In this document: positions 4,785 to 45,635 of the stretch, one piece after another
Layout: each line of letters opens with the position of its first letter
How positions within the stretch are numbered: position 1 is the first letter of the stretch
From: Lentimicrobiaceae bacterium
Lineage (GTDB): Bacteria > Bacteroidota > Bacteroidia > Bacteroidales > UBA4417
Direction: 5' to 3'
DNA length: 64,000 nt
NCBI GenBank assembly: GCA_028697555.1
Contig: JAQVEX010000002.1
Span: 11,677 to 75,676, forward strand
The notes under the pieces: model-generated
Told to the model about the DNA's origin: nothing
Seen by the model: the letters and a program-made list of their open reading frames with translations, nothing else
Database searches by the model: none
Position numbers and translations under genes: made by a program

Positions 4785-4847
4785 ATTTAATTATTACTGC
4801 CCGATAAAACCTTGAAAAAGGACATCATTCTGCGGCTTGTGTTAATT

Positions 4848-4953
4848 GCCTTTAGCCTTTAGCCTTTGGCTATTAGCCATTAGCCAAACTCAGCCAACAG
4901 CCAACAGCCAATAGCCAATAGCCAATAGCCAATAGCTAATAGCTAATAGCAAT
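4848..4953. repeat. Heptamer-array element E1: 15 in-phase degenerate 7-mers (GCCTTTA x2 ... CAGCCAA x3, TAGCCAA x4, TAGCTAA x2)
   Basis: Read directly from the sequence. The period of 7 is maintained from 4848 to 4953. Lies between the convergent trkH and carbonic anhydrase genes. Confidence 0.9.
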
Positions 4954-4991
4954 GACAATTTATAAAAGGTTAAAACCAAAAGTCGAAAAGG

Positions 4992-8629: not shown

Positions 8630-8700
8630 GATATATTTTTACACTTAACCAAATGATTGAACATTATTTTTGTATTAAAAATCATTGTTGTCCAATAAAT

Positions 8701-8906
8701 GCCATTAGTCCCGAAGTTTCGGGACTGTTAGCCGTTGGCTGTTGGATAGTGATGGGTGATGGGTGATGGCTTGTCCCGAGTATTCGGGAGTGATGGGTGT
8801 GTTTTTAGTTCCTAGTTTTAAGTTATGAGACAAGAGTTGAGACACTCAGAACTCTCCCGAAACTTCGGGACAGAACTATACCCGTAACTCGCACCACGCA
8901 ACACTA
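8701..8906. repeat. Heptamer/palindrome mosaic element E2 (composite, three palindromes)
   Basis: Palindromes: GTCCCGAAGTTTCGGGAC at 8708-8725, TCCCGAGTATTCGGGA at 8774-8789, and TCCCGAAACTTCGGGA at 8855-8870 in the opposite orientation. In-phase 7-mers at 8726-8774 (TGTTAGC ... GGGTGAT x2) and 8878-8905 (ATACCCG TAACTCG CACCACG CAACACT). Confidence 0.9.
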
Positions 8907-8968
8907 ATCAAAAAAAGCTAATGACTAAAAAATATATTTATAAGGCGTTATAAGTAAAAATTTTGCAT

Positions 8969-9008
8969 AAAAAAAACGAAAGCCATAACTAATGCGGCTT
9001 TCGTTTTT
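8969..9008 (-). terminator. Rho-independent terminator downstream of the skp/ompH pair
   Basis: CGAAAGCC (8977-8984) pairs with GGCTTTCG (8996-9003). On the minus strand the stem is followed by a T8 run. Confidence 0.7.
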
Positions 9009-9026
9009 CGCTAATATTATTATGAC

Positions 9027-10223: not shown

Positions 10224-12845
10224 TTAATCAATAGATGAGTTTATGGAGAAGTGGAACTGACCCTTGTTGGCAGAAGGCATACCAGGGATTGGGTCAAATC
10301 CGTAACCCCAGTCTAAACCAAGCAAGCCGAACATTGGTAAATATACTCTCAATCCCACACCTGCCGATCGTCTAACGTTAAATGGGTTGTAGTCTTTAAT
10401 TTTGTCCCAAGTGTTTCCGGCTTCAACAAAAATAGATGCATAAATTGTTGAATTCGGATTAAGGGTTAGCGGGTACCTTATCTCTAATGTGGATTTGTTG
10501 TATATACTGGCACCCTTTTTAGTTGTGGTTAGTGACTCGTTTTCGTAACCTCTAAAGCCTATAACCTGTCTTCCGTCGATGTAGCCGTAGCCGCTCATTC
10601 CGTCTCCACCCATAACGTATCTGTTAAATGCAGTAATGTTTAAGTCGGGGTTGTATTTTCCTATAAAGCCGGCTTTTGTCCTAACCATAAGCACCAAGTC
10701 GCCTACAATTTGCTGATAAAATGTAGCGTTTAGCTTCCATTGGTGAAACTCAACCAAGCGATATTTGTCCACATTGCTTTTTTGTTCGTAAGCATTAGGA
10801 AACATAATGGAGTAGGGTGGTGTAGCTTCTACCGATACGCTAAATTCGGAACCTACTCTGGGGTAAATGGGCGCATCGTTTGAGTAACGACTTAAACCAA
10901 TTGTGTACGAATAGTTTTGATACAAACCGTTACCGTCGAGAACAGCAAGGTATGGAGTGTAATTTCTTAGTCGATACTGTTGTAAGTTTAGCGAGTGGAA
11001 GAAACTGAAATAGTTGTCGGGCCAATTCAGACGACGACTTAATCCAACACTAAAACCTAAAATATTATATTGTATCCAATCTTCTTTTGCTTCCTTATAG
11101 TTGTGTGTGAGATTGGAATTGTAGATAGAAACGCTAAATTGGTTTGGTCTTTTGCCTCCCAACCATGGTTCGACAAATGATGCTGAAATGCTGTAATAAC
11201 CTCTGCCATACGATTGACCTCTGAGCGATAATCTTTGTCCATCTCCCGAAGGGATAGGTTTCCATGATTCTTTTTTGAAGAATTTTTTAGTGGAAAAGTT
11301 ATTAAAAGAAACGCCCAAGGTTCCTATGAATCTTCTAAAGCCCCATCCGCCCGATAGTTCTAATTGGTCAGAAGATGTTTCTTCAACGCTATAAGCTATA
11401 TCCACGGTTCCGTTATTGGGGTCGATGTTGGTAGGGGTAATTCCCATAGTTTCGGCGTTAAAGTATTTTAGTTGGCTTAAAGATGTACGGCTTCGCAAAA
11501 CATCCGAACGGCTGAATAATTGTCCGGGTCGGCTTGCCAATTCGCGAATTATTACTCCATCGTTTGTTCGTGTGTTGCCCGAAACAGTAACCTTATTTAT
11601 ACGCATTTGCTTGCCTTCTCTAATTCTTATTTGCATATCAATAGAGTCGTTTTCAACTCCCATAATAACGGGTTCAATATTGCAGGTAAGGTAGCCGTCG
11701 TCGGCAAATAAGCTCATTAAATCAACACCTGTAGGGTTGAAGTTTAAGACCGTTTCTAGATATTCAAGGTTGTAAACATCTCCTTTTTCAATGCTTATAA
11801 ACGATGCAAGCTCCTCGGAATTGAATTTGGTGTTTCCGGCAAAAGTAATGTCTCGGTAGTAATATTTATTGCCTTCGTTAACGTGCAGGTCTATATTCAG
11901 GCGTTGTTTGTTGATATTGTAAACCGTATCTTCGGTAATGTGAGCATCGATAAAGCCGTGGTTGTGGTATTTTCTGATTATGTTTTGTTTATCTTCTTCG
12001 TAATCTTTTTCTAAAAATTTAGAACCTTTAAAAACACGCACTTTTATGTTTTGGTCGGCTAAATCGTTTACCGTATTGGGCAATTCGTTAATACTGTTAT
12101 CAAACAGGTGATAGAAAGCCGAGTAAATTGTTTGGTTTGTAAATTTTAAGAAGTTGTATTTTCCGGCTTCTTTGGTTTTCTTCATAGCCGATTTGATAGC
12201 TGTTTGGCTAAGCTTATCGTTGCCGTAGATGTTTATTTTTTCAATTCTAACCTTTTTACCTTTATTTATGCTGATTTTTAAGTCAACAAAATTTTTGAGA
12301 GATGTGTCTTCTACTTGTACGATGTTTACTTTGGTAGCCGAAAAACCCTTATTTTTATAATGTTTTTGAATGGTATTGCTAACTCTGTTGATTAAGTTTT
12401 CGGTAACGACGTCGCCTCTCGATATTTTTAATTTATCGCGAAGGTCGGTGGCTTCGCCTTTTCTAACGCCAACAATGCTGAATTTTGATAATCGTGGGCG
12501 TTCGGTAACAATAATATCTAAAAATATTTGGTCGTTGTGTATTCTGTTAGACACTATTTTAACATCTTCAAATAAGCCTTGTTTCCAAATGTTTTCAATA
12601 GCTTTTTTAATTTTATCGCTTGGGATTTCAATTTTGTTGCCAACACGCAATTCCGAAATTGAAATAAGCATTGAAGTGCTTATATGTTGTGTTCCTGTAA
12701 CCGTTATACCTCCAATTGTATATTCTTTTGGGGCGGCGTAGTTTACTTCCAACTTTTCTTCGCCAATAACAATTTGAGCTTTTATGTTTTGAGCCAACAG
12801 TAGCGCAATGATAATTAAAAGTATGTTTATGTATTTGTTTTTCAT
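10224..12845 (-). CDS. bamA: Outer membrane protein assembly factor BamA (Omp85)
   Basis: 873 aa with a signal peptide, POTRA-like N-terminal repeats and a C-terminal surface-antigen beta-barrel ending in an aromatic-rich motif. Synteny uppS-bamA-skp-skp. Confidence 0.9.
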   Translation of the reverse strand: MKNKYINILLIIIALLLAQNIKAQIVIGEEKLEVNYAAPKEYTIGGITVTGTQHISTSMLISISELRVGNKIEIPSDKIKKAIENIWKQGLFEDVKIVSNRIHNDQIFLDIIVTERPRLSKFSIVGVRKGEATDLRDKLKISRGDVVTENLINRVSNTIQKHYKNKGFSATKVNIVQVEDTSLKNFVDLKISINKGKKVRIEKINIYGNDKLSQTAIKSAMKKTKEAGKYNFLKFTNQTIYSAFYHLFDNSINELPNTVNDLADQNIKVRVFKGSKFLEKDYEEDKQNIIRKYHNHGFIDAHITEDTVYNINKQRLNIDLHVNEGNKYYYRDITFAGNTKFNSEELASFISIEKGDVYNLEYLETVLNFNPTGVDLMSLFADDGYLTCNIEPVIMGVENDSIDMQIRIREGKQMRINKVTVSGNTRTNDGVIIRELASRPGQLFSRSDVLRSRTSLSQLKYFNAETMGITPTNIDPNNGTVDIAYSVEETSSDQLELSGGWGFRRFIGTLGVSFNNFSTKKFFKKESWKPIPSGDGQRLSLRGQSYGRGYYSISASFVEPWLGGKRPNQFSVSIYNSNLTHNYKEAKEDWIQYNILGFSVGLSRRLNWPDNYFSFFHSLNLQQYRLRNYTPYLAVLDGNGLYQNYSYTIGLSRYSNDAPIYPRVGSEFSVSVEATPPYSIMFPNAYEQKSNVDKYRLVEFHQWKLNATFYQQIVGDLVLMVRTKAGFIGKYNPDLNITAFNRYVMGGDGMSGYGYIDGRQVIGFRGYENESLTTTKKGASIYNKSTLEIRYPLTLNPNSTIYASIFVEAGNTWDKIKDYNPFNVRRSAGVGLRVYLPMFGLLGLDWGYGFDPIPGMPSANKGQFHFSINSSID

Positions 12846-27061: not shown

Positions 27062-27385
27062 ATGCAAAACGATACCGAAAAAAAAGATTTATACAATAAA
27101 ATAGTATTAACTGTAAAAACCGTTTACGACCCCGAAATGCCTGTTGATATCTGGGAGTTGGGATTGATTTACAAAATTGAAATCAAAGACGATTTTACTG
27201 TTGATATAAAAATGACTTTAACTTCGCCAAATTGTCCCGTAGCTGAGAGTTTACCTGCTGAGGTTTACGAAAAAGTTAAAATGATTGACGGAGTAAAAGA
27301 TGTAAATATTACATTGGTGTTCGAACCATCGTGGAATCAAGATATGATAAGCGATGAAGGACTTTTGGAGTTGGGTTTGCTTTAG
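27062..27385 (+). CDS. sufT: SUF-associated DUF59 (MIP18/SufT-like) Fe-S assembly protein
   Basis: 107 aa with the motifs VYDPE.P..I.ELGL and TLTSPNCP. Confidence 0.8.
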   Translation: MQNDTEKKDLYNKIVLTVKTVYDPEMPVDIWELGLIYKIEIKDDFTVDIKMTLTSPNCPVAESLPAEVYEKVKMIDGVKDVNITLVFEPSWNQDMISDEGLLELGLL

Positions 27386-27386
27386 A
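27336..27386 (+). repeat. Direct repeat copy A (3' end of sufT including its stop codon)
   Basis: 46/51 identical to 28477-28527, aligned base by base. Confidence 0.9.
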
Positions 27387-27399
27387 CTAACCCTACAAA

Positions 27400-28293
27400 T
27401 TAAATCACCACTATTTTTTTAACAACAAATTGGTTGTTTTTTAGCGTAACCCGCACAAACAGAACACCTTTTGCTTTAATATTGTCAATTGTGGCAAAGT
27501 CTCCATTAATATCAGTTTTTGAGCATATTTGTTTACCATTCATATCAAAAACATCAACTCTTTTAATGTCCGCACTTGTGTTTATTCTGATATGACCGGT
27601 GCTTGGGTTAGGCGAAATATCAATTTTATTTACCGTTTGTTCCGACAACCCCATATAGTCCATCGTAGAGGGTTCAAAGATGTAATATGGCTTATTGAAA
27701 ATATCGTAATGCACTCTTATATATCCTGTAGTTACAACCGAGTCGAATAAATGATAAAATTTGCCACCAACAGGAATACTATCGTATCCTTCTCCTATAA
27801 AACCAAACCAATAATCATTAATGGTCAAAACATAATAGGTTTCGTCAGCCAACAACTGCCACACCATTCCTGGTAGAACAGGATACGTAGTACCGGGATT
27901 ACCCGAAGGAACTATCACTCCTTCTAAGGTAACATTTTCGGGAGGTGGTGCAAGTTTTTCTATACTTGTTAATTCTATTTCGTAGTAATCTTCGGATTGG
28001 CAATCTTGCTTAACGCTTATTGTACCAATAGCTTTAACACTGTCGTTAATTAAGTAGGTAGTGCCAAAATATTCCAAACCGGCATGTTCGCCATTAATAG
28101 TAGTTATATAGTTTATGTTATTGTAACGTACGGCATAAACCAGATTGTGAAGTGTAGGTATGCTTTCAGGTGGACATGGTCGTGTAGTTATTTTGCCGTA
28201 TATAGTGTCGTAATTTTGCGAATGTAAGCCACCAGTAAAAAACAAAACTACAAACACTAGCAGTATTAATTGTTTTTTGTTATTGTAAATCAT
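27400..28293 (-). CDS. Secreted protein with a T9SS type-A C-terminal sorting domain; function unknown
   Basis: 297 aa with a signal peptide. The C-terminal roughly 75 aa (ISPNPSTGHIRI...GVLFVRVTL...KKIVVI) fit the Por secretion-tail pattern. Confidence 0.65.
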   Translation of the reverse strand: MIYNNKKQLILLVFVVLFFTGGLHSQNYDTIYGKITTRPCPPESIPTLHNLVYAVRYNNINYITTINGEHAGLEYFGTTYLINDSVKAIGTISVKQDCQSEDYYEIELTSIEKLAPPPENVTLEGVIVPSGNPGTTYPVLPGMVWQLLADETYYVLTINDYWFGFIGEGYDSIPVGGKFYHLFDSVVTTGYIRVHYDIFNKPYYIFEPSTMDYMGLSEQTVNKIDISPNPSTGHIRINTSADIKRVDVFDMNGKQICSKTDINGDFATIDNIKAKGVLFVRVTLKNNQFVVKKIVVI

Positions 28294-28367
28294 AATGTTT
28301 AATTTTTAAGGTTATTAATTCTATTATTGTAAATACAATTTGTTAGAACAATGAAACTGAATGACTT

Positions 28368-28375
28368 CAAAATTA
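28368..28375 (-). promoter_or_regulatory. Possible -7 promoter box (TAATTTTG) for the T9SS cargo gene
   Basis: Reverse complement matches TAnnTTTG, 75 nt upstream of the ATG at 28293. Confidence 0.3.
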
Positions 28376-28406
28376 AAAAATATTTACAAATAATTATTAA
28401 AAAAAT

Positions 28407-28414
28407 CCCCCCCC
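28407..28414. repeat. Homopolymeric C8 tract (G8 on the strand of the downstream cargo gene)
   Basis: Read directly from the sequence. Unusual in an AT-rich intergenic region. Lies 114 bp upstream of the start at 28293. Confidence 0.9.
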
Positions 28415-28476
28415 ATAAATTAACAAAAATTAACAAAAAATGCTGTGCTTTTACGCAGGTTAGTTATCAACATAGT

Positions 28477-28527
28477 ATCAAGATATGATAAGCGATGAAT
28501 GACCTTTGGAGTTAGATTTGCTTTAAA
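28477..28527 (+). repeat. Direct repeat copy B (decayed duplicate of the sufT 3' end)
   Basis: 46/51 identical to 27336-27386. Would read ..QDMISDE-stop. Confidence 0.9.
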
Positions 28528-29746: not shown

Positions 29747-30412
29747 ATGGAATTATATACCGCAATTGTATTAGCTTCGGGCGATGGCACAAGGTTTGGC
29801 GATAAACCCAAGCAGTTTGCAATGTTTATAGATAAACCATTGTTGCTGCATTCTATCGATGTGTTTTTGTCAGATGAAAATTGCGATAAAGTAGTTTTAG
29901 CCTTATCGGAAAAATTATTACCCCTTTGGAAAGAAATAGTAGCTAAAAATCCTGAATATTCCGCAGTAAATGTAACAATAGGCGGCGACACCCGATTTAT
30001 GTCGGTAAAAAACTCCATAGCTCTTGATATTAACACCGAGTACATTGCAGTGCACGATGCGGCTCGTCCTATAATCACAAAACCATGGCTTAAAGATATT
30101 TTTTCGCATGCAGTAAAAAACAAATCGGCTGTGCCGGTTGTTGATTTGGTTTATTCGATTAGAGCCGTAAAAAACAATACTTCGGAAGCTGTAAACAGAA
30201 GCGATTACAAAATAGTACAAACTCCGCAGTTTTTTCAGACAAGTATTTTAAAAAAGGCTTACCAACAACCATATACCGAAAAGTTCACCGACGATGCATC
30301 GGTAGTTGAAAATGCAGGATATTCGGTATCGCTTTGCGAAGGACTGAATAGGAATATAAAAATTACGTATCCGTATGATATTGAAGTTGCTAAAGCAATT
30401 AGTGAGTGGTGA
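29747..30412 (+). CDS. ispD: 2-C-methyl-D-erythritol 4-phosphate cytidylyltransferase
   Basis: 221 aa with A.GxGxRFG and VHDAARP motifs. The last three codons and the stop codon lie inside heptamer array E3. Confidence 0.88.
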   Translation: MELYTAIVLASGDGTRFGDKPKQFAMFIDKPLLLHSIDVFLSDENCDKVVLALSEKLLPLWKEIVAKNPEYSAVNVTIGGDTRFMSVKNSIALDINTEYIAVHDAARPIITKPWLKDIFSHAVKNKSAVPVVDLVYSIRAVKNNTSEAVNRSDYKIVQTPQFFQTSILKKAYQQPYTEKFTDDASVVENAGYSVSLCEGLNRNIKITYPYDIEVAKAISEW

Positions 30413-30555
30413 GTGGTGAGTGGTGAGTGGTGCGACATTTTCGGTCATTGAGTGCCGATGTTGAGCGAAGCGAAATATCGGTGTATCGAAATGCCGAAAA
30501 TGGAGAGTAAGATGAGGTTGCGGGTTACGAGTTACGGGTTTCGAGTATCCGCGAA
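30402..30555. repeat. Heptamer/core mosaic element E3
   Basis: GTGAGTG x4 plus GTGCGAC at 30402-30436. Structured core at 30437-30506 with the inverted repeat CATTTTCGG/CCGAAAATG. Seven in-phase 7-mers at 30507-30555 (GTAAGAT GAGGTTG CGGGTTA CGAGTTA CGGGTTT CGAGTAT CCGCGAA). Confidence 0.9.
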
Positions 30556-42378: not shown

Positions 42379-43797
42379 ATGCAAAAACAATTACTCGAAG
42401 ATGCTATTATTTCAAATATCGGTTATGTCCCAACCGATAATCAAAGGAGTGTTGTAGGCAAAATTTCGGATTTTTTGTTGCAAAAAGACCCGTACTCGCT
42501 ATTTGTACTCAACGGTTCGGCTGGTACAGGTAAAACAACCTTGATAAATGCAATTGTAAAAACTTTAAAAAACACCAGAACTCCTTATGTGCTATTAGCT
42601 CCAACCGGAAGAGCAGCTAAGGTTATGGCAAACTATACAGGAGAAACGGCTCTTACCTTGCACAAGTTTTTGTATTACTACAGCTATGATGAGTCGGGGG
42701 ATTGGAAATCGCAGTTGAAAAATAATAAATCGGAAAATGCAGTTTTTATGGTCGATGAAGCCTCGCTACTTTCGTACAATGCAAGTGCCTTTGATAACTA
42801 CCAACAAGTTTTACCCGACCTGATTAATTTCGTTTTTTCAAAACCTAATAATAAACTCATTTTTATAGGCGACACTTGTCAGCTTCCCCCTATTGATAGC
42901 ACTATAAGTCCTGCCATGGATGCAAAAACAATGGAGTCGTTGTTTTCGTTAAATGTCTCCGATTCGAATTTAAGTCAGGTTGTGCGGCAGTCGGAAGATT
43001 CGGCAATTCTGTCGCTCGCCGAATTTGTCAGAACCAAAATATCAAATAATAATGCAGATTTACCATATCTAATGATTGAGGAAAATGCTGCAGATGTTAC
43101 TGTTGTTGATGGATATGAATTTATAGATAATTTGGAAACAGCATATTCTCGTTTTGGGAAAAACGATGTGGTCCTGGTTACAATGTCGAACAAACGAGCA
43201 AATTTATTCAATAAAACTATTCGCGAACGCGTTTTTTATCAAGATTTTGAAATCAACGCAGGCGACATGATAATGGTGGTAAAAAACAATTATTTTTGGC
43301 TCAAAGATATTGATCAAGGTGGTTTTATTGCCAATGGCGATATAGGCGAAGTGCTGAGCATCAGAAATTTTGAAGAAATTGGCGAATTCAAATTTGCCGA
43401 TGCTCAAATTAAACTCATCGATTACGAGCAGCCGCTTACAGTTGAAGTTAAAGTTTTGCTCAATACTTTATGGTCGGAGCAGGCAGGACTTGGTTCCGAC
43501 AAAAGTTATCAGCTGTACAATATGGTAGCTCAAAAGTATGCTCATATTGCTTCTAAAGCCAAAAGGAACGAAAGTATTAGAAACGATGAGTATTACAATG
43601 CTCTACATATTAAATTTTCGTATTCGCTAACTTGCCACAAAACTCAAGGCGGACAGTGGAAAGCGGTGTTTGTAGAAAATCCTTTTTACAACGAGAGCAT
43701 GCAAACAGTTGAAAATTTAAAATGGTTGTACACTGCGATAACCAGAGCAACCGATAAATTATATTTGGTTAATTTTGAGAAACAATTTATAAAATAA
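42379..43797 (+). CDS. RecD-like superfamily 1 DNA helicase (AAA_30 plus UvrD_C-like)
   Basis: 472 aa with Walker A GSAGTGKTT, Walker B FMVDEAS, and C-terminal T.HK.QG..W / LYTAITRA. Confidence 0.75.
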   Translation: MQKQLLEDAIISNIGYVPTDNQRSVVGKISDFLLQKDPYSLFVLNGSAGTGKTTLINAIVKTLKNTRTPYVLLAPTGRAAKVMANYTGETALTLHKFLYYYSYDESGDWKSQLKNNKSENAVFMVDEASLLSYNASAFDNYQQVLPDLINFVFSKPNNKLIFIGDTCQLPPIDSTISPAMDAKTMESLFSLNVSDSNLSQVVRQSEDSAILSLAEFVRTKISNNNADLPYLMIEENAADVTVVDGYEFIDNLETAYSRFGKNDVVLVTMSNKRANLFNKTIRERVFYQDFEINAGDMIMVVKNNYFWLKDIDQGGFIANGDIGEVLSIRNFEEIGEFKFADAQIKLIDYEQPLTVEVKVLLNTLWSEQAGLGSDKSYQLYNMVAQKYAHIASKAKRNESIRNDEYYNALHIKFSYSLTCHKTQGGQWKAVFVENPFYNESMQTVENLKWLYTAITRATDKLYLVNFEKQFIK

Positions 43798-43803
43798 TTA
43801 ATT

Positions 43804-44283
43804 ATGAGAATAGGTTTAGGCTTTGATGTGCATGCTTTTGAAAAGAACAGAGAATTTTGGTTGGGCGGCGTTTTAATAGACCATTACCAAGGTTTGGCTG
43901 GTCATTCCGATGCCGATGTGCTTATACACAGTATTTGCGATGCATTGTTAGGAGCAGTTAATTTGGGTGATATAGGCTCCAATTTTCCTGACAGCGACCA
44001 AAAATACAAGGATATCAGAAGTATGGTCTTGCTTAAGGCAGTAGCCGAAAAGTATAAAAACATAGGATACAAAATAGTTAATATAGATTCGGTTGTAGTG
44101 ATACAAAAACCAAAGATAGCACCGTATATACCGCAGATGAAAGAAGAAATTGCTAAATGCTTAGGTATAGACGTAAATCAGATTTCTATAAAAGCCACAA
44201 CTACCGAACATCTTGGTTTTGAAGGTCGTGAAGAAGGAGTTTCGGCACAAGCTGTTGTTTTGGTTGAAAAGGAATTTGTGTAG
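43804..44283 (+). CDS. ispF: 2-C-methyl-D-erythritol 2,4-cyclodiphosphate synthase
   Basis: 159 aa with the motifs GFDVH, GHSDADVL.H and the downstream FPDSD. Its stop codon TAG is the first 3 nt of element E4. Confidence 0.93.
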   Translation: MRIGLGFDVHAFEKNREFWLGGVLIDHYQGLAGHSDADVLIHSICDALLGAVNLGDIGSNFPDSDQKYKDIRSMVLLKAVAEKYKNIGYKIVNIDSVVVIQKPKIAPYIPQMKEEIAKCLGIDVNQISIKATTTEHLGFEGREEGVSAQAVVLVEKEFV

Positions 44284-44483
44284 TGTTTCGGGTTGCGTGG
44301 TGCGTGGTGCGGGTTTCGGGGTGCGGGTTACGGGTTATCCCGAAGTTTCGGGAGTCACTGAGTGCCGAAAGCGTATCGAAGTGCCGAAAATGGAGAACGC
44401 TTTGGACTTCGGCTCTTCGACAAGTTTAGTAACCGAAGTCTATCACCCACCACTCATCACTCATCACCATTCACCCAACACTA
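44281..44483. repeat. Heptamer/palindrome mosaic element E4, filling the whole ispF-porV convergent gap
   Basis: Eight G-rich 7-mers at 44284-44339 and the palindrome TCCCGAAGTTTCGGGA at 44338-44353. A core shared with E3 at 44355-44396 and the hairpin GACTTCGG/CCGAAGTC at 44405-44440. Six C-rich 7-mers at 44441-44482. Both termini read TAGTGTT as an inverted repeat. Confidence 0.9.
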
Positions 44484-45635
44484 ATTAATATCAAACGATA
44501 GGCTAAAACGCATTGTATTTGCAAGCGGGTGTTTAGAGTTGGTTGTGTAGTTCACTACAGGAATAATGTACGAAACGTCAATTCCAATTACGTTGTATTT
44601 AAAACCGGCTCCTAATGTAGCAAACGACCTTCCACCTTTGTTTTTATTTTCGTAAAAGAAACCGCCTCTTAAAGCAAACTGTTCAGCGTACCAATATTCA
44701 ACACCGGTAGCAACGTTATATTCTTGCATTTCTTCTTGAAAACCGCCGGGAGCATCATAAAACGAGTGAATAATTCCCACAGGAACCGAAACATCGTCAT
44801 CTAACCCAAGTAATGTGCCGTCTTCTCCAACCCTTCTGGGTGTTGGAACCAATAGTTTATTGATTTCCAACATAAAAGTTGCTTTATTGTAGTTGTCAAA
44901 ATCAATGTGTAAAGCAGGACCTATACGCAAGTTTGCCGGAATAAATTCTTTTTCGGTATTATCGTCGGTATAAGATATTTTACTACCGATATTAGAAATA
45001 TTGACACCCCATGCAAAATAACCTTCGTAATTTGAAATAACTATGGGCAAACGTTGATATACCGATACGTCTGCCGCAATTGAGTTGCCAGGTTTAGTGC
45101 TTTGCGACCCAATTGATTGTCCCAAAGTCAGATTTGAGTATATATATCGGGCTGAAATACCTCCCGACAATGTAGCGGTAAGCATTCGAGAGTAAGTTAC
45201 ATCAAAAGCAAATTCGTGTGGAACATAATTACCTATGCTATAATTGTATTCGTCGGTAAATGCTATATTTCCTAAATTAAAATATCTTAGCGAAGCAGCT
45301 ATTACCTGATTTCTATCAATACGAGCGTATCCCGACAGGTAAGCTAAGTCTATGTCTTTTGCTATACTTGCAAGCCAAGGACTATATGCAACACCTACAC
45401 CCATTTTGCTTTTTGTATAAGCATATTTTGCAGGATTGTAGTGCATAGAAAATGCGTCGGGTTCGGAAGCAACGCCCATATCGGCAAGTGAGCCGCCGCG
45501 TGCATCAGGCGATATAGTTAAAAATGGAACTGTTGTAGTTATTGGATTATAGGCTCCTGTATATGAGTTTTGTGCTGAAATCCCTATAGTTGTTAGAGTT
45601 AAAATAGCTATAAGTAACTTGTTTAAGTATTTCAT
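44481..45635 (-). CDS. porV: Type IX secretion system outer-membrane shuttle protein PorV (LptO)
   Basis: 384 aa with a signal peptide and a conserved PorV N-terminus (VPFLTISPDARGGSLADMGVA). FadL-like barrel. Immediately downstream of porU. Confidence 0.85.
   Translation of the reverse strand: MKYLNKLLIAILTLTTIGISAQNSYTGAYNPITTTVPFLTISPDARGGSLADMGVASEPDAFSMHYNPAKYAYTKSKMGVGVAYSPWLASIAKDIDLAYLSGYARIDRNQVIAASLRYFNLGNIAFTDEYNYSIGNYVPHEFAFDVTYSRMLTATLSGGISARYIYSNLTLGQSIGSQSTKPGNSIAADVSVYQRLPIVISNYEGYFAWGVNISNIGSKISYTDDNTEKEFIPANLRIGPALHIDFDNYNKATFMLEINKLLVPTPRRVGEDGTLLGLDDDVSVPVGIIHSFYDAPGGFQEEMQEYNVATGVEYWYAEQFALRGGFFYENKNKGGRSFATLGAGFKYNVIGIDVSYIIPVVNYTTNSKHPLANTMRFSLSFDIN

Follow-up and report, generated by a model that had tools for sequence, protein, structure and literature searches.

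A composite heptamer-repeat hairpin fills the convergent ispF/porV junction of a Lentimicrobiaceae bacterium, where sister genera carry a bidirectional terminator

We analysed a 64,000-nt stretch of DNA, called the window here, from the metagenome-assembled genome of a Lentimicrobiaceae bacterium (Bacteroidales). It is a stretch of housekeeping genes with a GC content of 36%, and it contains a 203-nt repeat element, E4 (44281-44483), which makes up the whole gap between two convergent genes. On the plus strand, ispF (43804-44283) encodes 2-C-methyl-D-erythritol 2,4-cyclodiphosphate synthase and is identical to NCBI MDD3737774.1. On the minus strand, porV (44481-45635) encodes an outer-membrane channel protein of the type IX secretion system (T9SS). 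An earlier note, made from the letters alone, had proposed that the inverted termini of E4 supply the stop codons of both genes, and the open reading frames (ORFs) and the protein models bear this out: E4 opens with the ispF stop TAG (44281-44283) as its first three bases, and the porV stop TAG (44483-44481) stands as CTA on the plus strand. IspF matches TIGR00151 (E 1e-63) with model positions 1-155 on residues 2-156 of 159, and PorV matches NF033710 T9SS_OM_PorV (E 2e-139) with model positions 9-367 of 367 on residues 16-383 of 384. Since these NCBIfam models reach to within 3 and 1 residues of the stops, respectively, both proteins are complete, and E4 therefore starts as near to functional coding sequence as possible.

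The note had also described the build of E4 as eight G-rich heptamers, a palindrome, a core, a perfect 8-bp hairpin and six C-rich heptamers, and it proved correct in every detail that was checked. The left arm (44281-44336, plus strand) consists of eight degenerate units with a consensus of about GCGKGKT (TAGTGTT, TCGGGTT, GCGTGGT, GCGTGGT, GCGGGTT, TCGGGGT, GCGGGTT and ACGGGTT), the first of which is at once the terminal inverted repeat and the ispF stop. It is followed by a 16-nt palindrome, TCCCGAAGTTTCGGGA (44338-44353), a small module with a separate distribution, and by the 51-nt core (44354-44404, plus strand), a truncated and diverged copy of a hairpin that lies 3' of ispD. In the private hairpin (44405-44440, plus strand), GACTTCGG (44405-44412) and CCGAAGTC (44433-44440) pair perfectly over 8 bp around a 20-nt loop, and no paralogue of it was found in the window or in related loci. 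The right arm (44441-44483, plus strand) is built from six C-rich heptamers (TATCACC, CACCACT, CATCACT, CATCACC, ATTCACC and CAACACT) and a final A. Its terminus AACACTA (44477-44483) holds the complement of the porV stop, and the reverse complement of this end reads TAGTGTTG.

Tandem Repeats Finder reported period 7 at 44285-44336 (7.4 copies) and at 44442-44467 (3.7 copies). Period-7 self-similarity reached the threshold at 118 window positions, and periods 5, 6, 8, 9 and 10 at none. With 7-nt units repeated head to tail in at least three copies, the arms of E4 are heptameric simple-sequence repeats. The palindrome, CCCGAAGTTTCGGG, occurs at five loci in the 64 kb against 0.12 expected, always in or beside arrays, and TAG accounts for 9 of the 47 stops in the window. 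Moreover, two independent assemblies from other samples contain E4 without a single base difference, so it is no assembly artefact. Period-7 specificity, palindrome excess, TAG rarity and independent assemblies together show that the structure is real and goes beyond chance. We do not take a 91-aa ORF across E4 (44213-44488) for a coding sequence: it arises because the frame of the heptamers is open, and its sequence is replaced in other alleles.

The ispF homologues form one tight cluster of six variants that are at least 90% identical, with the next relatives at 62-66% identity. Fetching the variants of this cluster gave five alleles of the ispF/porV junction (related loci compared with the window are labelled L001 and so on). 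Allele V1, found in the window and identically in L032 and L033, has the order given above: G-rich heptamers, palindrome, core, private hairpin and C-rich heptamers. In V1b (L076-L078) the palindrome and the core are as in V1, and 6 of 28 inner-arm bases differ at an ispF identity of 97.5%. In V2 (L066-L071) the palindrome, the core and the private hairpin are replaced, and the G-rich heptamers are followed by AT-rich heptamers (CAATTAT), the hairpin CCCCGCAGGTGCGGGG, TTAATTG heptamers and the C-rich heptamers. V2b (L001) is V2-like with other unit numbers, and V3 (L072) is V2 with the 16-nt palindrome within the left arm and some units changed. The core is absent from the junction in V2, V2b and V3. 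All five alleles keep the ends TAGTGTT(G)...(C)AACACTA and both TAG stops. The terminal inverted repeat is short, with 7 bp in the window (TAGTGTT/AACACTA) and 8 bp in the other clade (TAGTGTTG/CAACACTA), and three of its bases are the stop codons.

We found that the interior of E4 turns over far faster than the flanking genes. The V2 and V3 loci L067 and L072, with ispF 99.4% and porV 99.1% identical, already differ in their interiors, and the number and sequence of heptamer units vary at E4 and at two further loci described below, Eb and E3, against flanking genes that are 97.5-99.4% identical. Between the window and the L067/L072 clade the flanking genes differ by 12-13%, and by about 29% at third codon positions. 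Over this distance neither the closing helix nor the outermost ~33 nt of the right arm has changed, save for one 1-nt indel. An E4-type structure at the ispF/porV junction predates the split of the two clades of the genus. The allele pattern is unlike that of a single inserted unit and fits a resident structure with a rebuilt centre.

The sister genera indicate what preceded E4 at this junction. In five loci from them (L003-L006 and L011; PorV about 60% identical) the two genes converge as well, with a gap of about 115 nt between them, which holds a bidirectional intrinsic terminator with a run of A6-9, a 7-bp stem of the GGYWRCC type and a run of T6-8. L002 has the same stem without the A and T runs, in a gap of about 300 nt. 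The stem-loop is kept in all six sister-genus loci and the full A/T runs in five of them; a terminator scanner picked up L004 and missed L005 through its GC-pair rule, and the sister loci were judged by direct reading. The ends of the genes differ as well. In the sister genera ispF ends ..VVLLEG* or ..LLA*, against ..VVLVEKEFV* in the window, and PorV ends ..RFSLLINFDSPSVR, against ..RFSLSFDIN. Because the sister-genus stops are TAA or TGA and TAG is rare in the window, both window TAGs were derived along with E4. The earlier note had reasoned that element-free orthologues with identical C-termini and stops at the same nucleotides would speak against an insertion; the element-free sister genera differ in both, and so do not raise this objection. 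These comparisons indicate that E4 stands at the ancestral site of a classical bidirectional terminator and displaced it.

As the note had expected of its two arms, E4 folds into one long hairpin, which is closed by both termini. The predicted RNA fold has an energy of -78.3 kcal/mol on the plus strand (z -3.9; 0 of 200 shuffles folded as well) and of -66.4 kcal/mol on the minus strand (z -2.4), and the single-stranded DNA fold one of -36.5 kcal/mol (z -2.7). The fold-energy density of the E4 gap is the highest among all intergenic gaps of the window, and E4 has the stable GC-rich stem-loop that is expected of an intrinsic terminator. On either strand, each of the four complete junction alleles forms one hairpin with the termini as its closing helix (z -2.7 to -6.1). 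A strand preference through G-U pairs was considered and dropped: V1 favours the plus strand and V2 and V3 the minus strand, which gives no consistent strand and does not indicate the relevant mRNA. The left arm of V1 holds a canonical G-quadruplex motif, G3N(1-7) x4 (GGGTTTCGGGGTGCGGGTTACGGG, 44311-44334). We rejected it as a conserved feature, since V2 is without the G-runs and has a single GGG run. At the gathering threshold, Rfam gave two tRNAs only in the whole window, and in E-value mode it gave chance-level matches only around E4 and around E3, the element 3' of ispD; E4 therefore belongs to no known RNA family.

We favour, with a probability of roughly 0.55, the reading that E4 is a resident composite quasi-palindrome that displaced the ancestral terminator and is now likely, as predicted, a shared 3'-end structure. 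It is not one transposable unit. Two inverted arrays of degenerate 7-nt repeats make up the arms around exchangeable centre modules, which are the 16-nt palindrome, the truncated copy of the ispD hairpin and the private 8-bp hairpin. The arms would change by replication slippage and homogenisation of units, and the centre by insertion or exchange of small palindromes and by copies taken from repeat loci elsewhere, such as ispD, 13.8 kb away. Extension or symmetrisation of the palindrome to the coding limits would have fixed the same TAG on both genes, because a stop in one arm of a palindrome necessarily reappears in the other arm as an identical stop of the converging gene. Such an extension probably explains the twin TAGs better than a TAG-targeted insertion. 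The resulting hairpin of about 200 nt is a putative shared 3'-end structure of the ispF and porV mRNAs, which might act as a pause or termination site, as a barrier to 3' exonucleases or as an insulator between converging transcription.

The ispD locus shows a comparable effect on a gene end. E3 (30394-30552, plus strand) is composed of a TGGTGAG array that includes the ispD stop TGA (30410-30412), a 67-nt hairpin (30436-30502) and GTTRCGR heptamers. This TGA is one of only three in the window. The ispD tail and stop differ by lineage, with ..AISEW*, ..AISNYQ* and ..AMSDW* (window 30394-30412; L093 10648-10669; L103 10645-10666), and in the other clade a different array of the GCAATTA type supplies the tail ..AISNYQ* and the stop. 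Repeat turnover thus rewrites the last 3-4 codons and the stop of an essential enzyme. The 67-nt hairpin itself (-29.3 kcal/mol, z -5.8, plus strand) is invariant over 72 columns in five lineages, with about 9% difference in the adjacent spacer and with the upstream array replaced entirely. Neither this hairpin nor the E4 core has a match in Rfam. The invariant hairpin may represent a structured RNA not described before, or a 3' hairpin under unusual constraint.

The core of E4 aligns with 30483-30506 of this locus over 24 of 24 positions at 96% identity, with a 16-mer that contains one mismatch and the box CAYTGAGTGCCGA common to both. Missing from it, compared with the ispD copy, are the 5' stem half and the inner hairpin. 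The core occurs twice in the 64 kb, both times directly 3' of genes of the 2-C-methyl-D-erythritol 4-phosphate (MEP) pathway. The ispD locus of the other clade runs from palindrome through G-rich units to core, and V1 of E4 has the same order with two deletions; this shared order suggests that the core was copied from an ispD-like locus through shared heptamers. Two wider origins were rejected. Scans of viral contigs gave 12 matches to the core 16-mer and 20 to the palindrome 16-mer, in unrelated contexts without heptamers, which speaks against a phage link. A metagenome scan for the core 20-mer gave 8 matches, all in GC-rich coding contexts, which speaks against a widespread core family.

E4 is accompanied in the window by five further heptamer-array elements, which lie in convergent, tandem and divergent gaps. 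Beside E3 these are Ea (4839-4960, convergent gap), Eb (8698-8910, tandem gap upstream of rplM), E5 (53107-53275, divergent gap) and E6 (61470-61640, tandem gap). Their heptamers are of the types GCCWWWA, GTGATGG, GTGAGTG, GTTRCGG, AATTAAC and CACCCAT. They form long hairpins on both strands (z -2.3 to -7.9), and all six elements of the window fold. What the elements have in common is small modules, not overall sequence. Outside E4 the ends are different, and most do not lie at stops. In other genera of the Lentimicrobiaceae, large heptamer arrays stand upstream of ispF (L002 5926-6209; L003 5712-5943). In one of them GGTTTCG-type units face 27 units of CATCCGA as an inverted pair, and between the arrays stand CGAAGC-rich modules that recall the E4 core. 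Heptamer arrays are essentially absent from 19 Flavobacteriales-type loci.

Eb is present in all lineages compared, with variable unit numbers. In the window only, it carries an extra 20-nt module, CTTG+TCCCGAGTATTCGGGA (8769-8788), between whole GTGATGG units, which is not found in L104-L106. L103 has a near-identical 20-nt module at another locus (~10673-10692), in an array of the GTGAGTG type. Across both lineages the module reads CTTG+TCCCGAG(T/A)ATTCGGGA and sits exactly between whole heptamers, and it looks like a discrete tiny insertion module. At window position 61483 and in L072, the 16-nt palindrome can be removed together with a 5-nt flank (TGGTG or KGTTG) to leave a perfect heptamer register, and at 8709 removing the palindrome alone does so. 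A 5-nt duplication on insertion of a palindromic module into a heptamer array thus fits at two sites. A consistent target duplication did not emerge: the 5 nt fit 61483 and L072 and there is none at 8709 and none for the 20-nt CTTG variant. At E5 (region 53030-53310), an element of about 240-290 bp lies in the divergent gap between a PorU-like gene and PorP. Its counterpart in L072 (19122-19546) has the same outer GTTGGCT/AGCTAAC layer and different inner AATTAGA/TCTAATT heptamers, and an imperfect direct repeat, ~ATATTAAATG, flanks the insert.

Extended to the whole family, the proposal would be that heptamer slippage and 16-21 nt palindromic modules build layered hairpins, which can replace terminators and rewrite the ends of ispF, porV and ispD. 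We put this forward tentatively, as an idea that is more probably wrong than right. If true, these would be the first 'very small mobile elements' resembling the small dispersed repeats (SDR) of cyanobacteria outside that group, and terminators would evolve by repeat accretion. For the putative mobility of the small modules we rely on no more than two or three polymorphic sites.

The functional step is the weak part of our proposal for E4, and several observations weigh against it. No U-tract follows the E4 hairpin, which continues with AUUAAUAUC on the plus strand and with CACAAAUUCC on the minus strand, and a terminator scan of 43700-45000 returned no terminator-like site; E4 was hence rejected as a canonical intrinsic terminator. 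Since the sites found window-wide barely exceed the shuffled expectation, the scan cannot show how this genome terminates. Ea lies in a 207-nt gap between the TrkH and carbonic-anhydrase genes (4785-4991). It is absent in L104-L106, where a 45-nt gap (L104 14542-14586) has the same TAA stops and no obvious terminator. The gene ends are the same with and without Ea. E5 belongs to a divergent promoter gap and is missing from L066 and L067 (L067 19139-19275; gap 135 nt). Elements of the family are thus not bound to 3' ends. A canonical terminator at the 3' end of ompH (8968-9010; A-run, CGAAAGCC...GGCTTTCG, T-run) adjoins Eb and is kept in L104-L106, so the heptamer family is not the terminator of this genome as such. 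Two other convergent gaps of the window are only 5 and 14 nt long, and converging genes without an intergenic structure are therefore tolerated. In addition, the outer arm could be conserved because degenerate units slip little, and not through selection. The suggestion of the earlier note that selection for a shared terminator explains the arrangement fits the sister-genus terminator at the same junction; with the missing U-tract and the blank scan, E4 itself is not canonical. Like a bidirectional intrinsic terminator, E4 offers a symmetric hairpin usable from both strands at the sister-genus terminator position; unlike one, it has a hairpin about 10 times longer that begins at the stop codons. 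A terminator role seems plausible for E4, and not as a family property.

Much of this evidence would also be expected if E4 were functionless neutral or selfish repeat DNA, in which slippage-prone arrays and tiny palindromic inserts accumulate wherever an intergenic gap allows it, and which filled this gap up to the coding limits and destroyed the terminator, with the fold as a by-product and with 3' ends formed via Rho or in the opposite gene. We regard this as a possible explanation, and as the less probable one. The empty orthologous sites of E5 and Ea, the intact canonical terminator beside Eb, the convergent gaps of 5 and 14 nt and the lack of a U-tract at E4 all favour it, as do the very fast turnover even between ~99% identical genomes and the presence of elements in all gap types, divergent ones included. 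It accounts less well for the end-to-end foldability of all alleles despite their differing content, and for a closing helix and an outer right arm of about 33 nt that stay unchanged across ~29% third-position divergence. Moreover, E4 replaces a terminator at a junction where 6/6 sister loci keep the stem-loop, 5/6 of them with A/T runs.

MITEs (miniature inverted-repeat transposable elements) such as Correia or ERIC are about 200 bp long, have terminal inverted repeats, can fold and can overlap gene ends. E4 resembles them in size, termini, folding and gene-end overlap, and the earlier note had accordingly spoken of a MITE-like or REP-like geometry (REP, repetitive extragenic palindrome) and of an insertion targeted at TAG. 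The geometry holds for the hairpin, which has a REP-like shape, and fails for the MITE unit, since the sequences searched gave no second copy and the interiors differ. That a non-autonomous transposon with TAGTGTT inverted termini inserted as one unit at TAG (or TA) and created both stops is very unlikely in our view. Its terminal inverted repeats would be 7-8 bp, its ends read TA...TA as after a TA duplication, the TAGTGTTG end recurs at the right end of Eb, and the C-termini of the genes differ where E4 is lacking. However, neither the window nor ~0.5 Mb of related loci nor the public-collection scans for the core yielded a second copy of the unit, so that a family of near-identical copies is missing. 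The five alleles at one locus have common ends and unlike interiors, the arms are tandem heptamers of variable number and sequence and not a fixed terminal repeat, and the other elements have other ends, most of them not at stops. The flanks of E4 (...TTTGTG / ATTAAT...) contain no direct repeat, and only the TA inside each terminus is readable as a TA duplication. Whole-unit presence and absence at orthologous sites was not encountered: the alleles of the same genus keep the ends, and the sister genera that lack E4 have ~60% protein identity. No transposase domain was found among the scanned genes of the window region, and no REP-associated tyrosine transposase (RAYT) in the 64 kb plus fragments. 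The occurrence of the TAGTGTTG end at Eb, 120 nt from any stop, and the start of E3 with TAGTGAG further suggest another origin of the termini, in which TAGTG would be the form that the G-rich unit takes at a boundary (TGGTG to TAGTG) and not a target site.

An action at the DNA level, in which a cruciform, a G-quadruplex or heptamers serving as protein-binding arrays affect replication, supercoiling or recombination, is less probable still. The single-stranded DNA does fold (-36.5 kcal/mol, z -2.7), the left arm of V1 has the canonical G3N(1-7) x4 motif, G-rich heptamers of Xanthomonas and Nostoc form G-quadruplexes in vitro, and the elements occur in gaps of all orientations. On the other hand, the motif is not conserved, with a single GGG run in V2, pairing of the arms is much stronger in RNA, where G-U pairs form (-78 kcal/mol), than in DNA (-36 kcal/mol), and no candidate binding protein was identified. 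Least probable of all is that the core is a pathway-specific 3' untranslated RNA common to the MEP genes ispD and ispF, with the heptamers as mere packaging: both 64-kb copies lie directly 3' of MEP genes and the ispD copy folds strongly into a hairpin (-29.3 kcal/mol, z -5.8) that is invariant over 72 columns in five lineages beside a spacer ~9% variable, but the ispF copy is truncated, without the 5' stem half and the inner hairpin, the core is absent from the junction in V2, V2b and V3, Rfam gives no match, and the exact 20-mer has no meaningful context in public metagenome and viral contigs.

The reading of E4 as a resident quasi-palindrome has its nearest parallels in other phyla. In Xanthomonas (GGGAATC) and Nostoc (GGGGA(C/T)T), intergenic tandem 7-mers often occur as two convergent arrays able to form stem-loops, with a strong bias to positions within 50 bp of, or over, a stop codon (Rehm et al. 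2015, PMC4692102). Between related species, a given junction keeps the single or inverted-pair type of these heptamers while length and sequence vary, and transcript starts or stops fall at them more frequently than at controls (PMC4692102). Among described cases, the inverted GGGAATC pairs of Xanthomonas come closest to the E4 arms. As in Xanthomonas, the arrays stand as inverted pairs, E4 overlaps both stops and E3 overlaps the ispD stop. Unlike the Xanthomonas and Nostoc cases, E4 belongs to a member of the Bacteroidota, of the family Lentimicrobiaceae, with 36% GC. It nests unrelated G-rich, C-rich and AT-rich heptamer families as layers of one hairpin, its arms are different units that pair largely through G-U, it embeds small palindromes and modules, and its G-quadruplex potential is not conserved among the alleles.

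Cyanobacterial heptamers of the short tandemly repeated repetitive (STRR) type contain SDR, hairpin modules of 21-27 nt within the arrays, as Elhai and co-workers reportedly described in 2008. Like SDR, the small hairpin modules of the window are dispersed, lie in heptamer arrays and are polymorphic between orthologous loci, as seen for the palindrome in V3 against V2 and for the 20-nt module in Eb of the window against L104-L106. They differ from SDR in phylum and in size (16-21 nt against 21-27 nt), and the sequences appear unrelated.

REPs are units of 20-40 bp with a conserved GTAG or CGTC head, and RAYT transposases mobilise them; they frequently border or overlap ORFs, and the ends of GTAG-REPs in many cases give a TAG stop to the flanking ORFs (Di Nocera et al. 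2013, PMC3733652). REPs and bacterial interspersed mosaic elements (BIMEs) are extragenic palindromes arranged in mosaics, for which roles in termination and mRNA stabilisation have been proposed (PMC3733652). Like GTAG-REPs, the termini of E4 supply TAG stops, here to both genes. Unlike REPs, E4 is a 203-bp composite with tandem-heptamer arms, and its 16-nt palindrome has no GTAG head. GTAG is present only at the left end of E4, and TTAG at the right end of E4, at Eb and at E3.

Orthologous alleles here show a fast-evolving repeat that appears to have taken over a conserved terminator site and to set the stops of two essential genes. This bears on the evolution of 3' ends in the Bacteroidota, whose terminators are poorly charted, and V1, V1b, V2, V2b and V3 make up a tractable natural series for the effect of long U-less hairpins on transcripts. 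Two features earlier described in Xanthomonas and cyanobacteria, inverted heptamer repeats and tiny palindromic modules within heptamer arrays, are extended to a new phylum. Heptamer elements also create lineage-specific C-terminal tails, which are open to misreading by annotators.

Short-read (Logan) contigs often end in or just past heptamer elements (L071, L073-L084, L095, L097, L098, L100, L101 and L107-L111), so these repeats break assemblies of this genus. Upstream of porV, two tandem genes for PorU-like C25 peptidases of 1272 and 1132 aa occupy 45734-52959, and the first matches the model of the T9SS sortase PorU. A segment of about 1.14 kb (27327-28525) carries a T9SS-cargo gene (27400-28293, minus strand, Por_Secre_tail) and has no counterpart in L093 and L103, where the gap between the Fe-S assembly gene and queA is without it. 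A 58-nt direct repeat (86% identical) flanks the segment and is a duplication of that Fe-S assembly gene's 3' end. At the end of the window (61783-64000), tandem coding repeats of 87 nt (29 aa) lie in and after an RHS-repeat/Por_Secre_tail gene (61806-63179), and the two blocks of the 29-aa repeat (~62100-62790 and ~63560-64000) are 65-75% identical.

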